Origin: a virus
Direction: 5' to 3' (one strand)
UHGV virus genome: UHGV-0130462
Length of the DNA: 38,884 nt
Shown: positions 28,936-33,852 of the stretch, piece by piece
How the letters are laid out: each line of letters opens with the position of its first letter
How positions within the stretch are numbered: position 1 is the stretch's first letter
The notes under the pieces: generated by a model
Database searches by the model: none
The model's input: only the letters and a program-made list of their open reading frames with translations
Told to the model about the DNA's origin: nothing
Position numbers and translations under genes: made by a program

Positions 28936-29328
28936 TTAGCTCTCCTGCTGATACTGTTCAAACCAGAAAACAACCGGTTTATCGACCAATTCAATCAATC
29001 CAAACCTTTCAGCCGTTCTGAAATTAACAGATGATTTTCTAGCCCTATCAGCTTGTTTTTTGATTTCTTCTCGAAACACTTCAATGCTATAAACAGATTT
29101 AAATAGATTGCAGGGTGCGCATGCAGGAACAAGGTTGTCCTCTGTGTCTTTTTCAGGATTAAAACACTCTCCTGTTACTACTATTTTTCCGTTAATTCTG
29201 TCGATTTTTCTGTAAATAGGCTCTACGTGATCCGCGTGCCAACCTTTTTCTGGTAACTCACAACCACAGTAAGCGCATCGACCACCGAATAGCATCCGTA
29301 GATTTTCACGTTGTTTTTTAGTCATCAT
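28936..29328 (-). CDS. HNH endonuclease
   Basis: CAYCGC...GWHADHVEP...CAPCN layout. Confidence 0.8.
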   Translation of the reverse strand: MMTKKQRENLRMLFGGRCAYCGCELPEKGWHADHVEPIYRKIDRINGKIVVTGECFNPEKDTEDNLVPACAPCNLFKSVYSIEVFREEIKKQADRARKSSVNFRTAERFGLIELVDKPVVFWFEQYQQES

Positions 29329-29869: not shown

Positions 29870-31240
29870 TTAAACGTTGGCACCTTGGAATCGCCGTTGT
29901 TGTGGTCTGCTACTTTGTTGACAGATGCTAGATGCTTGAGCCTGATCGGTGTCAAGAAAATGACCGTTTTTAAATAATTGATAGACAGTACCCAGTTTCC
30001 CAAATCGGTTTTTTGTCACAATTATTTCTGCGTAAGCTGCTGCGGGGGAGTTCTCGTTATAGACTGCATCGCGGTAAAGCATGATGATGCTATCTGCATC
30101 TTGCTCTACGCTTCCTGAGTCTCTTAAATCCGCATTGGTAGGTCGTTTGTTAGGTCTCTTTTCAACATCACGAGATAACTGGCTTAGTGAAATAACAGGC
30201 GTTCTGATGTTTTTAGCCAACCCTTTCAGCGTTGCTGAAATATGAGCAATAGCCAAATCGTTACGCTCTGCGCGAGGTTTCTCAATCAACCCTAAGTAAT
30301 CAACCATGATTAACGATAATTCAGGGTGACGTTTCTTGTGTCGTGTTGAAATTGCAGTGATTTGTTCAACGGTTAACTTACTGGCATCGACAACCCAAAC
30401 ATTCAGTCCAAGTAAATTACCTGCCCCCATTGATACCCTGCCCCAATCTTCGTCACTCATACGAGATGGGTTTCTCAATGCGCTAACAGATAGATTTGCG
30501 GATCCTGCAATCTGACGCTCTACGATTTGCTGGGAGTCCATTTCCATGGAGAAAATTAAAACTCCTTTTTTGGTGTCAGATCCGATAACATTTTGAGAGG
30601 CAACACCTTCTGTAATTTTCAGCGCGATTTCTGTTTTACCCATTCCTGGTCGAGCGGCAATGATGACCAGGTCAACAGGATTGATACCTCCCATAATTTC
30701 ATCTAATTCGCGGATCCCCGTTTTTAACGTGTCCGACTCCTCGCCTTTGTTAACACGCTCTTGTAAAACTTCCGTGTAATCTTCGATTAACGATGACACA
30801 TGGACTGGTGCGATATCACCTTTCGAAGAATGCATATCAGATGCCTGAGCAAGAAAACTTTCCATTGCCTCACTGGCTTGCTCAATAGTTCCGTTCTCAA
30901 TCACACCGCGCACAGAATCCATTAACTGGATCATAGCTCTACGGTTATGATTATCGGTCACCATCTTGGCATAGCCTTTCAGGTTGGCTGCGCTAGGGCA
31001 ATCCTTGGCTGTTTGAATGATGTTTGCTAGGTGTTCACTTCCCATTCCTTCAGCAACCATCATCATATCGATGACACCGCGAGACTTGGCTTGTTTTTGA
31101 ATAACTTGATAGGCTTCTCGATAGAACCTAACTGAAAATGATTCAGGCTCTAAAGTGGCCAAAACATCCGAGGCATCAGGTGTTAACCCTGAAATTAACA
31201 AACCGCCAATAACACTTGCTTCAAATTCCGTATTGATCAC
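29870..31240 (-). CDS. replicative DNA helicase (DnaB-like; P22 gp12 position)
   Basis: Walker [10 protein letters not shown] and DnaB C-terminal domain motifs; follows the O-like initiator. Confidence 0.9.
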
Positions 31241-32077
31241 TTAAAACCCCCTGTCAGCAAATTTACCTTCTCGAACACCCGTCAACGTTGTTTCTCTTAG
31301 CAGATAATCAATGTCAGCCGTCCAGCCTGTGTCGTTTTCACCAAAATAAAATGGCTTAGCCATTCGAACAAAAGCTCTTACGTAGGCTCGCCAACCATCA
31401 ACGTTTGCCGTTGCAAGGTTTTTGATTATCTTCCTGATCCGTGTTTTACGTTTCTCGTTAGCTTCCACAGCGTGAGGTAATCTGTCGCCAACCTCCTCGT
31501 TGTAGGCATTGAGATATTCATCGTAGTTAATTGGAGTTGATTTTCTCTTGGTAGGTTTTACCGATTCTCCCCCTTTCACCTCGTGAGGGGTAAGGGGTGT
31601 ATTACTTTCTTTCTTTTCTTTTGTAATAGTTTCTTTTGTGTGTCCCTGTTTTGGTGACAGCGCTGTCACGCTTTTGGTGACACTTTTTGTCACTGTTTTG
31701 GTGACAATGACACCGTTTTGGTGACACTCATGAATATCCCACTCAGTTAGGTTTTTATTAGGCCCTATCGCCATACCAACTTTCACTATAACTTTCATAG
31801 CGATAAGCTCATTTTTTGCCTTGTTAACTTTCTGCCTTGGTAGTCTAGTTAACTCTGCCAACTGACTGTCTGATATGCGGTCTGTTTTCTTATTAAACCC
31901 ATAAGTTTTCCTGCAAATAGCATGAGCAACTTTTGCCTGATTCTTTGTTAGGTTTGCGCCAATTAATTCTTCGTAAAGCTCATTAGCTAATTTTGTATAG
32001 CCATTATCAAGATCTGCCACGTTAGGCCTCTCTTGCCGTCGTTGATTACCAAAATCTGCATATGCAACATTACTCAT
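31241..32077 (-). CDS. replication initiator, lambda O-like
   Basis: N-terminus (...NVADLDNGYTKLANELYEEL...LTKNQAKVAHAICRKTYGFNKKTDRISDSQLAELT...) parallels the lambda O N-terminal domain; iteron array inside the gene. Confidence 0.85.
   Translation of the reverse strand: MSNVAYADFGNQRRQERPNVADLDNGYTKLANELYEELIGANLTKNQAKVAHAICRKTYGFNKKTDRISDSQLAELTRLPRQKVNKAKNELIAMKVIVKVGMAIGPNKNLTEWDIHECHQNGVIVTKTVTKSVTKSVTALSPKQGHTKETITKEKKESNTPLTPHEVKGGESVKPTKRKSTPINYDEYLNAYNEEVGDRLPHAVEANEKRKTRIRKIIKNLATANVDGWRAYVRAFVRMAKPFYFGENDTGWTADIDYLLRETTLTGVREGKFADRGF
31649..31726. repeat. origin iterons: four direct TTTTGGTGACA repeats at 20-24 bp spacing inside the O-like gene, next to an AT-rich tract
   Basis: Read directly at 31649, 31672, 31696 and 31716; partial inverted TGTCAC/GTGACA elements. 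Confidence 0.75.
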
Positions 32078-32246
32078 GCGATCCTCCTAGTAATTTCTCA
32101 CGATGCTCATTTCTCAATTTTGCATCTTCGAATGCTTCCTTTAGACGTTTACTTCCTAACGGTGTCACTTCTCGTAACGTCTTATCTCGCATGATGTTTT
32201 TATGCACTTCGTGACGATTAAACCAATGATTAACTTTCTTCTTCAT
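32070..32246 (-). CDS. hypothetical small basic protein (58 aa) between cII-like and O
   Basis: ATG 32246; its stop overlaps the O start (ATGAGTAA); below the ORF-track cutoff. Confidence 0.35.
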   Translation of the reverse strand: MKKKVNHWFNRHEVHKNIMRDKTLREVTPLGSKRLKEAFEDAKLRNEHREKLLGGSHE

Positions 32247-32279
32247 GGTATAATTTCCTTATTCCTAAGCTGTATCAGC

Positions 32280-32306
32280 AAAAGGAAAGCTCAAAATCAG
32301 CTTCCC
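32280..32306 (-). terminator. rho-independent terminator downstream of the cII-like gene
   Basis: Minus-strand RNA: GGGAAGCU-GAUUUUG-AGCUUUCC followed by a U run. Confidence 0.45.
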
Positions 32307-32363
32307 TTTAATGCTGGTTATTGATACAGTGTATTTGTTAGTTTAAATGGTTAAGTCCATTTG

Positions 32364-32690
32364 TTAATGCGCCTCGGTTGCTCCAACAATCGGGGCGTTT
32401 TCTTTTGTTCTCACCTGAGAAAGTTCACCTATTTGTTTCCATAAAAAGCGGTATTCTTCCTCTGATATTTTCCTCTCTCCTTCCATCACAAAATCGACTA
32501 TCCCTGATGCGACTAATGTCTCGCATATCTCAGGATATTTTTCAGTTCTGCGTAGAATGGTTGAGTCATGAACACCTAATGTTTTAGCGACCACCGACTG
32601 AGTTTTATTTCTCAATGCCTGTAATGCCGAAGCCATCAAGTGATTTGAAATGAATTTATTAAATTGTTTGCGTGTATTTGTGTATTCCAT
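32364..32690 (-). CDS. CII-like transcriptional activator (HTH)
   Basis: Position after cro and HTH segment ALRNKTQSVVAKTLGVHDSTILR. Confidence 0.5.
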   Translation of the reverse strand: MEYTNTRKQFNKFISNHLMASALQALRNKTQSVVAKTLGVHDSTILRRTEKYPEICETLVASGIVDFVMEGERKISEEEYRFLWKQIGELSQVRTKENAPIVGATEAH

Positions 32691-32779
32691 GGTTTAATTT
32701 CCTTATTAAATTACTTCTCGTTAGAGAACAGCAGTAATGATCCGTGGCTCATTCCATATGAGCGGATTGTTGATATGTT

Positions 32780-32813
32780 CCACAATGGCGGAACCTAAAT
32801 TGTGAAAAGAGCG
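32780..32813 (-). promoter_or_regulatory. nutR: boxA (CGCTCTTTT) plus boxB-like hairpin (CCGCCAUUGUGG)
   Basis: Minus strand, just downstream of the cro stop; same two elements recur at nutL. Confidence 0.5.
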
Positions 32814-32819
32814 GGTAAA

Positions 32820-33038
32820 TCAGTGAAAAATGTCTGGGTATAAAACTTCTTTAGATAATCCAGTAGCCATCATAAATTCACGCATTTTTGTTCTTGGTAG
32901 AGAACCACCGTTCTTTTTGATGGCTGAAATTCGCTGAGGTGTTAAGCCAACCTTTTTCGCGAGGTCTTTTTGCTTTCCACCTACTGCACTTACTGCAATA
33001 TCAATTGGTGTTTGCTTTTCCATTAAGTATAACTCCAT
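32820..33038 (-). CDS. cro: Cro-like repressor
   Basis: 72-aa HTH protein (QKDLAKKVGLTPQRISAIK) divergent from cI across the operator region. Confidence 0.6.
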   Translation of the reverse strand: MELYLMEKQTPIDIAVSAVGGKQKDLAKKVGLTPQRISAIKKNGGSLPRTKMREFMMATGLSKEVLYPDIFH

Positions 33039-33044
33039 GTTTAT

Positions 33045-33121
33045 TTATCAACATAATGTTAATCATTATCGAGCCATAAATCAACATAAAGATGATTGGT
33101 TTAAATAAACAAAATGTTTAT
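33045..33121. promoter_or_regulatory. OR: three dyad-symmetric operator sites sharing (T)CAACAT/ATGTT(G) half-sites, with divergent pR/pRM
   Basis: ATCAACATAATGTTAAT (33047-33063), ATCAACATAAAGATGAT (33080-33096), AAACAAAATGTTT (33107-33119); candidate pRM TTGGTT-17-TATCTT. Confidence 0.55.
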
Positions 33122-33141
33122 CTTTGTGTTCGGAGGTTCGC

Positions 33142-33852
33142 ATGGAACTTAGAGATCGAATTAATTACTTGCTAAAGGCTGAAAATCTAAAGCAAAAGGA
33201 CTTAGCTGAGAAACTAAATGCCAGTGCGCAAACAGTTAATAACTGGCTAAAAAGAAACTCAATTAGCAGGGAAGCAGCGCAACAGATTAGTGATATTTTT
33301 GGTTATTCACTTGACTGGTTACTGATTGGCAAAGGTGAGCCGAAAATAAAAAATATTGGACAATCAGAAATACCTGATGAAAACAAATTTATTCCTCTTC
33401 GAGTTTGGGATAGTCTAACACCTCTTGAGGCAGATGAAGTTGAGGTTCCTTTTTTGAAGGATATAGAATTTGCTTGTGGTGATGGATCGTTTACAGACAC
33501 TGATTACAACGGATTTAAACTAAGGTTTTCTAAAGCAACAATGCGGAGGATCGGAGCCAACAGTGACGGAGAAGGTGTGATTTGCTTCCCAGCCAGAGGG
33601 GATAGCATGGAGCCTGTTATATTTAATGGTACTACTGTTGCTGTAAACACTAGAGATAAGAAAATTGTTGATGGTAAAATTTATGCGATAAATCAAGGTG
33701 GGCTAAAAAGAGTGAAAATGCTTCATCAAACCACGCCTAAAACATTAACAATTCGTAGCTTCAATAAAATTGACTACCCAGACGAAGAAGTGCCAATAGA
33801 GGCAATAGAGATCATCGGTAGAGTTTTCTGGTGGTCTGTATTAGACGTCTAA
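33142..33852 (+). CDS. cI: CI-type prophage repressor (HTH plus LexA-like S24 autopeptidase domain)
   Basis: N-terminal HTH (LKQKDLAEKLNASAQTVNNWL) and C-terminal GDSMEP ... LKRVK catalytic Ser/Lys; GGAGG 6 nt upstream of ATG 33142. Confidence 0.9.
   Translation: MELRDRINYLLKAENLKQKDLAEKLNASAQTVNNWLKRNSISREAAQQISDIFGYSLDWLLIGKGEPKIKNIGQSEIPDENKFIPLRVWDSLTPLEADEVEVPFLKDIEFACGDGSFTDTDYNGFKLRFSKATMRRIGANSDGEGVICFPARGDSMEPVIFNGTTVAVNTRDKKIVDGKIYAINQGGLKRVKMLHQTTPKTLTIRSFNKIDYPDEEVPIEAIEIIGRVFWWSVLDV

Follow-up and report, generated by a model that had tools for sequence, protein, structure and literature searches.

In this temperate, P22-like phage of Proteus, the origin of vegetative (theta-type) replication is very probably the segment 31570–31726 of the window (the whole 38,884-bp stretch of viral DNA analysed), a segment of lambda-like design that lies within the gene for the phage's own initiator. 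The lambda ori architecture put forward in the original prediction is supported by the homology of the initiator, by a gap-free alignment of the iterons with the same spacing, by an adjoining AT-rich tract and by comparative data. The layout of iterons and AT tract within O is also that described for lambdoid phages (PMC7466680). Searches of the literature turned up no paper about either the phage or its iteron sequence, the only sequence matches being unrelated primers.

Judged by its sequence, the source genome is that of a P22-like temperate phage of Proteus mirabilis. Its structural half is ~93% identical to vB_PmiP_Brookers and vB_BPM-V3 over 65–68% of the first 25 kb. The DNA of its O gene is 98.3% identical to the O gene of the isolated Proteus phage vB_BPM-V3, which speaks for a working replicon; the record of that phage labels a 'DNA replication protein O' and a 'DNA helicase' and has no origin label. 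The initiator gene (31241–32077, minus strand) encodes a lambda O-like protein of 278 aa that combines a Phage_rep_O N-domain with a C-domain of the P22 gp18/HK97 gp54 type. It is followed on the same strand by a gene for a DnaB-family replicative helicase of 456 aa (29870–31240; DnaB_C 7e-76, DnaB N-terminal domain 3e-14), whose start codon stands directly after the O stop codon and whose product presumably works together with the O C-terminal domain. Upstream of O are a 58-aa ORF and, within a lambdoid immunity and early-right region (32364–33852), a cII-like gene (32364–32690, minus strand), a cro-like HTH gene (32820–33038, minus strand) and a divergent cI-type S24 repressor gene (33124–33852, plus strand). 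The gene order around O thus reads as a lambdoid early-right operon, with the cI/cro/cII/O context that the window has in common with lambda.

The product of the initiator gene matches Pfam Phage_rep_O (PF04492) with residues 20–113, covering profile positions 2–95 of 95 at E = 1.7e-37, and this is its only Pfam match at E ≤ 0.01. It can be divided into a DNA-binding N-domain (about codons 20–113), a middle part that is encoded by the origin (118–169) and a C-domain (about 170–278). Identity to lambda O is 53% over residues 10–157, aligned with residues 13–156 of lambda O, and protein comparison detected no similarity to lambda O past residue 157; identity to HK97 gp54 is 51% over the full-length initiator and is higher in the C-terminal half. 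A PDB sequence search with O gave no match at E ≤ 0.01, and an Rfam scan of the whole window matched no family. Two other assignments were considered and rejected. An iteron plasmid replicon of the RepA/pi/Rep_3 type does not fit a protein for which Pfam gives Phage_rep_O only, nor iterons that lie inside the gene; a lambda O/P module does not fit a locus with neither a lambda O-like C-domain nor lambda P, in which the next gene is of the DnaB family.

Four direct repeats at a periodicity of about 20–24 bp had been predicted from the sequence, and the window does hold four exact copies of TTTTGGTGACA, starting on the plus strand at 31649, 31672, 31696 and 31716 with spacings of 23, 24 and 20. 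A search of both strands of the window returned no further exact copy, and the chance expectation for exact matches to this 11-mer is ~0.02. At ≤1 mismatch the window has 7 matches as compared with 1.38 ± 1.20 in shuffled sequences, and 0 of 100 shuffles reached 7. A repeat finder showed the true repeat unit to be 19 nt long (TGTCACnnTTTTGGTGACA), occupying 31641–31659, 31664–31682, 31688–31706 and 31708–31726. The range of 31649–31726 originally assigned to the array is therefore right at its right end and in the four starts of the repeat but misses 8 nt on the left, the full array beginning at 31641. In coding (minus-strand) orientation, the unit is the palindromic TGTCAC-CAAAACA-GTGACA, and the inverted TGTCAC/GTGACA halves that had been noted are real: GTCAC-N7-GTGAC at ≤1 mismatch occurs in the whole window at these four iteron sites only. 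The functional unit is most plausibly the 19-bp palindrome, of which TTTTGGTGACA makes up about two thirds.

The array (31641–31726) spans nt 352–437 of the 837-nt minus-strand Phage_rep_O ORF (codons 118–146), in agreement with the earlier placement of the repeats midway along this gene, and in the coding direction its iterons are spaced 20, 24 and 23 from start to start. Iteron 1 (31708–31726, coding-strand TGTCACCAAAACGGTGTCA) is nearest the gene start, has one mismatch in its right arm and is translated as CHQNGV. Iterons 2 (31688–31706, TGTCACCAAAACAGTGACA) and 3 (31664–31682, TGTCACCAAAAGCGTGACA) have perfectly palindromic arms and share a second frame, in which they encode VTKTVT and VTKSVT, respectively. 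Iteron 4 (31641–31659, TGTCACCAAAACAGGGACA) is read in the third frame as LSPKQGH; its right arm, again with one mismatch, continues into the conserved CAGGGACACACAAAAGA. All four iterons lie on the minus strand, and the left arm is perfect in every one of them. One DNA motif is thus read in three frames because the 20- and 23-nt spacings are not multiples of 3. A 41-aa ORF in another frame of the minus strand (31602–31727) was discarded as a mechanical ORF inside the O gene.

Directly beyond iteron 4 lies the predicted AT-rich tract (31598–31640), which is A-rich on the coding strand, encodes TKETITKEKKESN and is presumed to be the DNA-unwinding element. Its G+C content is 23% compared with 40.5% for the window, a value among the lowest 3.5% for segments of 43 nt but not a unique minimum, and its strand asymmetry (77% pyrimidine on the plus strand) falls in the top 0.4% of the window. 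Over 48 nt (31606–31653) the DNA here is homologous to the AT-rich tract of lambda ori, with 89.6% identity. The tract is bordered in turn by an imperfect, G+C-rich inverted repeat (31570–31597; CCCCTTACCCCTC-ac-GAGGTGAAAGGGG) with 13-nt arms that are 85% complementary and 2 nt apart; it was reported by one scan and is absent from the output of a second, which has a distance limit. It lies 44 nt past iteron 4, as compared with 43–44 nt for the lambda counterpart, a palindrome with 12-nt arms to the right of the AT tract (1163–1190 of the lambda locus, L004), and an inverted repeat is present at the corresponding place in mEp043 and phiEt88 too. The segment also overlaps a coding region that is conserved as protein (TPLTPHEVKGG). 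Because of this protein conservation and the imperfect (85%) pairing, the inverted repeat may not be a separate origin element. An inverted fifth half-iteron at 31329–31346 (TTTTGGTGAAA, minus strand) was rejected as part of the origin. It falls within the conserved C-domain motif FYFGENDTGW and is not co-inherited with the iteron type, since Salmonella phage MS2 LVA, which has another N-domain and other iterons, possesses the stretch unchanged (100% identity).

The correspondence with lambda is close in layout. The lambda RefSeq record gives four ori iterons at 39034, 39054, 39078 and 39101, which is the same 20/24/23 spacing as in the window, and the origin occupies nt 349–433 of 900 in the lambda gene and nt 352–437 of 837 in the window gene. 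In a multiple alignment, the four units of the window are in register, free of gaps, with lambda ITN1–4 and with the corresponding arrays of three further phages (HK97, mEp043 and phiEt88); all of them keep the A-rich core, and the ACACAAAAGA that follows the last unit is invariant. Both window and lambda have four iterons that are palindromes of 18–19 bp with a common CAAAAC core. They differ in the arms, which are ATCCCTC/GAGGGAT in lambda but TGTCAC/GTGACA in the window, and in the putative recognition-helix motif, PVKRCNEAK in lambda but PRQKVNKAK in the window. Furthermore, the C-terminal domain of the window O is unrelated to that of lambda O, and the gene after O encodes a DnaB-family helicase rather than lambda P. 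Because of this last difference, the window phage presumably does not hijack the host DnaB. Only the origin and the N-domain are lambda-like, the C-domain and helicase being of the P22 gp18/gp12 (HK97 gp54/gp55) type.

The same order of genes, an O-like initiator followed by a phage DnaB-type helicase, is found in P22 (gene 18/gene 12) and HK97 (gp54/gp55). The HK97 record notes that gp54 is similar to P22 gp18 and gp55 to DnaB, and gene 12 of P22 encodes a helicase of the DnaB type (PMC8022706). P22 and phage L have different iterons within gene 18, and those of P22 differ from those of lambda (PMC8022706). HK97 and the relatives of its type differ from the window in having TTAGC-type iterons and the helix motif HHTHV. 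The window presents an HK97/P22-type C-domain and helicase joined to a different N-domain-plus-iteron cassette. The N-domain type of the window is found in the O proteins of coliphage mEp043, Shigella phage Sf101 and Salmonella phage SEN22, with 61% identity over residues 1–197, a stretch that covers the N-domain and the origin-encoded linker. The TGTCAC/GTGACA iterons are common to these three phages and the window; hardly a base differs in iterons 3 and 4 and at the start of the AT tract, whereas degeneracy is greater in their iterons 1 and 2. None of the three has a C-terminal domain related to that of the window, and the gene after O is annotated as 'DNA primase/helicase' in SEN22 and as 'hypothetical protein' in mEp043 and Sf101. 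The records of all three, like that of vB_BPM-V3, carry no origin annotation. The Stx phages 933W and P27 also have a lambda-type origin in the middle of O, as the window does, but there the iterons number six and are of the lambda type, and the loader is of the lambda P type; the window has four, with other arms, and a DnaB-type helicase instead. Iteron number is variable in Stx phages (PMC7466680), as it is among the relatives of the window (3 to 7 or more).

A scan of IMG/VR for exact matches to TGTCACCAAAANNGTGACA returned at least 120 contigs, a set that was selected by its iterons and is thus biased. Among the matches listed, a window-type N-domain lies directly upstream in the same orientation in 111 of 120 contigs, while the window-type C-domain is found in only 25 of 120. 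Nine of the 120 contigs listed have no N-domain match. One of these (L049) ends 97 nt after the match and has both this iteron array and the AT tract. The others among the matches listed have a single isolated palindrome in an unrelated context; given the size of the collection, a 17-base pattern could occur this often by chance, or as part of an unrelated operator. As a control for the selection of viral contigs by iteron, 38 prophage loci from different bacterial species were gathered by the N-domain protein only and are therefore free of bias in iteron content. In this set, an N-domain at least about 66% identical to that of the window goes with a GTCAC-type array with 3 to 7 or more units, except at two loci where the gene is interrupted. 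A clade at 49–56% N-domain identity has GTCTC-N7-GAGAC arrays, HK97-like N-domains go with TTAGC-type arrays, and a distant MAG has yet another type. More diverged relatives of the N-domain are accordingly accompanied by arrays of like layout with other arms (GTCTC, GTTAC, TTAGC and the TCCCTC of lambda), and the ACACAAAAGA tract stands behind most such arrays, being absent in the two most distant (L166 and L167).

Across prophages of many Enterobacterales, the arms of the array also vary together with one short motif of the N-domain, the pairs being PRQKVNKAK with GTCAC, SRQNVNKAK with GTCTC, SRSKANIAK with GTTAC, HHTHV with TTAGC and PVKRCNEAK with TCCCTC. This motif most likely lies in the second helix of a helix-turn-helix; the term 'recognition helix' is used here in a putative sense, the helix having been placed by eye on the alignment and not from a structure. 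A comparison with MS2 LVA separates the N-domain and its sites from the remainder of the module: identity to the window is 46–60% through the N-domain and iterons, and from about 31650 it is 90–100% through the AT tract, C-domain and helicase. This jump points to exchange of the N-domain and its sites as a single cassette, joined to the remainder where iteron 4 meets the AT tract. On the other side of that boundary, the C-domain is associated with the helicase. Of 110 related loci with enough downstream sequence to be scored, all 16 with the C-domain type of the window have a DnaB-like helicase immediately downstream, as compared with 19 of the 94 others (Fisher p = 6e-10). This co-occurrence fits a two-domain model in which the N-domain would read the origin and the C-domain would recruit the helicase.

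It could be argued from the same comparison that the array is an inherited relic, or merely the joint at which modules recombine, and that replication starts elsewhere, for instance in a helicase-driven or recombination-dependent manner. The joint with MS2 LVA is located exactly at the iteron 4/AT-tract boundary, and degraded prophages do retain iterons, as in L164, in which the N-domain is a pseudogene. We consider this explanation improbable. A role as a recombination joint is compatible with origin function, and the phage has a complete initiator-plus-helicase module. No rival candidate for an origin came to light in the course of these analyses. Four perfect left arms, and arm conservation of at least 0.9 across species (computed on 28 of the 38 protein-ascertained loci, those bearing the TGTCAC/GTGACA iteron type), also speak against decay, and the unfailing match between array type and N-domain type is not expected of a relic.

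Somewhat less credible still is the possibility that the palindromes act as RNA or single-stranded DNA hairpins, serving as terminators or attenuators of antisense transcription through O, or as the operators of a regulator other than O. A consensus scan did find four terminator-like hairpins on the plus strand (antisense to O) at 31654–31715, each built from the arms of one iteron or of neighbouring iterons and followed by a T-run. Such structures are, however, the automatic outcome of short inverted arms beside TTTT; their stems are of 5–8 pairs with 3 G-C, and the consensus scan found no antisense promoter downstream. As for operators, the arm sequence tracks the O N-domain and no other gene, and an identity as cI/Cro operators was rejected, the repeats of the cI–cro intergenic region (33039–33123) being of the unrelated ATCAACATAA type.

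Conservation in the 28 loci distinguishes constraint on the DNA from constraint on the peptide. In the folded N-domain, third codon positions have a mean conservation of 0.58, as against 0.87 for the iterons and 0.78 for the AT tract (Mann-Whitney p = 6e-10), and the spacers between iterons are the least conserved columns. In phiEt88 both arms are altered symmetrically, from GTCAC/GTGAC to GTTAC/GTAAC. We take these patterns to show that selection acts on the DNA itself rather than on the peptide. A reading of the repeat as a mere (V-T-K-x)n peptide linker between the initiator domains, with the repetition in DNA a by-product of repeated codons, would account for iterons 2 and 3 and for relatives with similar VTK runs, but is the least tenable of all and can practically be dismissed, given four copies that encode unrelated peptides in three frames, third codon positions that are more conserved in the array than in the N-domain, V-T pairs that use the reverse-complementary GTCAC and GTGAC in a twofold DNA symmetry unexplained by peptide constraint, and arms that change together in phiEt88.

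We posit that the replication origin favoured here would function much as that of lambda does. Transcription of the early rightward operon (cro, the cII-like gene, the small ORF, O and helicase) would lead to the production of O and, as in lambda, would pass through the O gene and the origin within it. Dimers of the O N-domain, probably through a helix-turn-helix, would bind one to each 19-bp iteron with its TGTCAC/GTGACA arms and A-tract core, and four bound dimers on intrinsically bent DNA could form an 'O-some', straining the 43-bp AT-rich tract until it opens. The O C-terminal domain, being of the P22 gp18/HK97 gp54 type, would then bring in the phage DnaB-type helicase encoded by the next gene, after which host primase and polymerase would complete the replisome. 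For the binding of O and its dimer stoichiometry, for the bending and unwinding of the DNA, for the recruitment of the helicase and for the dependence on transcription, this model draws on the biochemistry of lambda and P22 (PMC7466680, PMC8022706).

A broader interpretation of the comparative data, to which we give about even chances, is that the helix motif and the arms form a readable, co-varying specificity code, that an N-domain and its own sites make up a self-contained 'specificity cassette', and that the nearly invariant start of the AT-rich tract (ACACAAAAGA) serves both as unwinding element and as the joint for homologous recombination. If the cassette interpretation is true, any combination of origin and N-domain could be joined to any helicase-recruiting C-domain, and the code, if true, would provide a natural dataset for predicting and re-engineering origin specificity. 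This interpretation takes further a principle that lambdoid phages have long been suspected to follow, and the mechanism is not a new one.

Taken on its sequence, the window appears to place a lambda origin architecture in the P22-type replication module of a Proteus phage, a textbook feature and a further example of the lambda paradigm. Current understanding is not challenged, and the mildly useful by-products are the co-variation of helix motif and arms, which may be tabulated, and the cassette boundary at the AT tract. The analysis identifies a TGTCAC-N7-GTGACA iteron type that is present, within the collections sampled, in at least 120 contigs of viruses and in about 27 species of bacteria, and it provides a candidate origin annotation for a group of P22-like Proteus phages and for the many prophages of Enterobacterales in which O is annotated and the origin is not. 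Possible uses are modest: the iteron type may help to predict replication incompatibility or cross-activation between co-resident prophages, to construct origin-based plasmids for Proteus and related hosts, and to read the breakpoints of mosaic phage genomes.

In some relatives (L112, L014, L139, L146, L153), the iteron array is enlarged by three or four additional upstream units. The additional units have a different core, GTCACCATGGTAGTGAC, and lack the A-tract; they come first in each array and are followed by two canonical CAAAAC units, an arrangement reminiscent of Stx phages, which also carry additional iterons.

The same initiator gene is disrupted in three further loci, from a Klebsiella sp. 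plasmid (L148), Pantoea sp. (L165) and Serratia symbiotica (L164). Because the sequence following the N-domain in the first two is unrelated and devoid of iterons, these two copies suggest an insertion or deletion. The Serratia symbiotica copy has stop codons within the N-domain, yet retains the iteron array. Among the IMG/VR matches listed, four contigs (L012, L073, L082, L103) each contain one TGTCACCAAAAAGGTGACA palindrome in a conserved intergenic stretch, closely followed by GGTATAAT and the start of a gene, with no O-like gene near the palindrome. These lone copies may represent the operator of an unrelated regulator, or coincidence.

The first 8 nt of the O gene are shared with a 58-aa ORF (32070–32246, minus strand) that has no Pfam match. 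HK97 (gp53), mEp043 (mEp043_053, DUF2740) and vB_BPM-V3 likewise have a small ORF at this site. In the nin-like region, a 130-aa ORF (28936–29328, minus strand) contains, by eye, what looks like a putative HNH-nuclease motif, CAYCG...HADHVEP...NLVPACAPCN.

On the plus strand, the region 32251–32410 includes a strong terminator-like hairpin at 32369–32398, listed by a consensus scan, with 12 pairs (7 of them G-C) followed by TTTCTTTTGT. The hairpin is antisense to the cII-like gene and overlaps its 3' end. A possible promoter, TTGATA-17-TAAATG, was picked by eye at ~32321–32349. In lambda, pO and the oop antisense RNA lie at the same position as the hairpin and candidate promoter; an Rfam scan of the window, including 32251–32410, matched no family. 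The intergenic segment 32251–32350 is 92–96% identical to Salmonella phage MS2 LVA, compared with 40–60% in the flanks on either side.

Comparison with the same phage revealed an abrupt mosaic breakpoint at ~31650, the boundary between iteron 4 and the AT tract. Identity to MS2 LVA is 46–60% upstream of this point and 90–100% downstream, as far as through the helicase gene, and O codons 1 to ~17 are again common to both phages. Since identity returns in these first ~17 codons, the exchanged unit spans roughly O codons 18–146 and comprises the DNA-binding domain together with its iterons.
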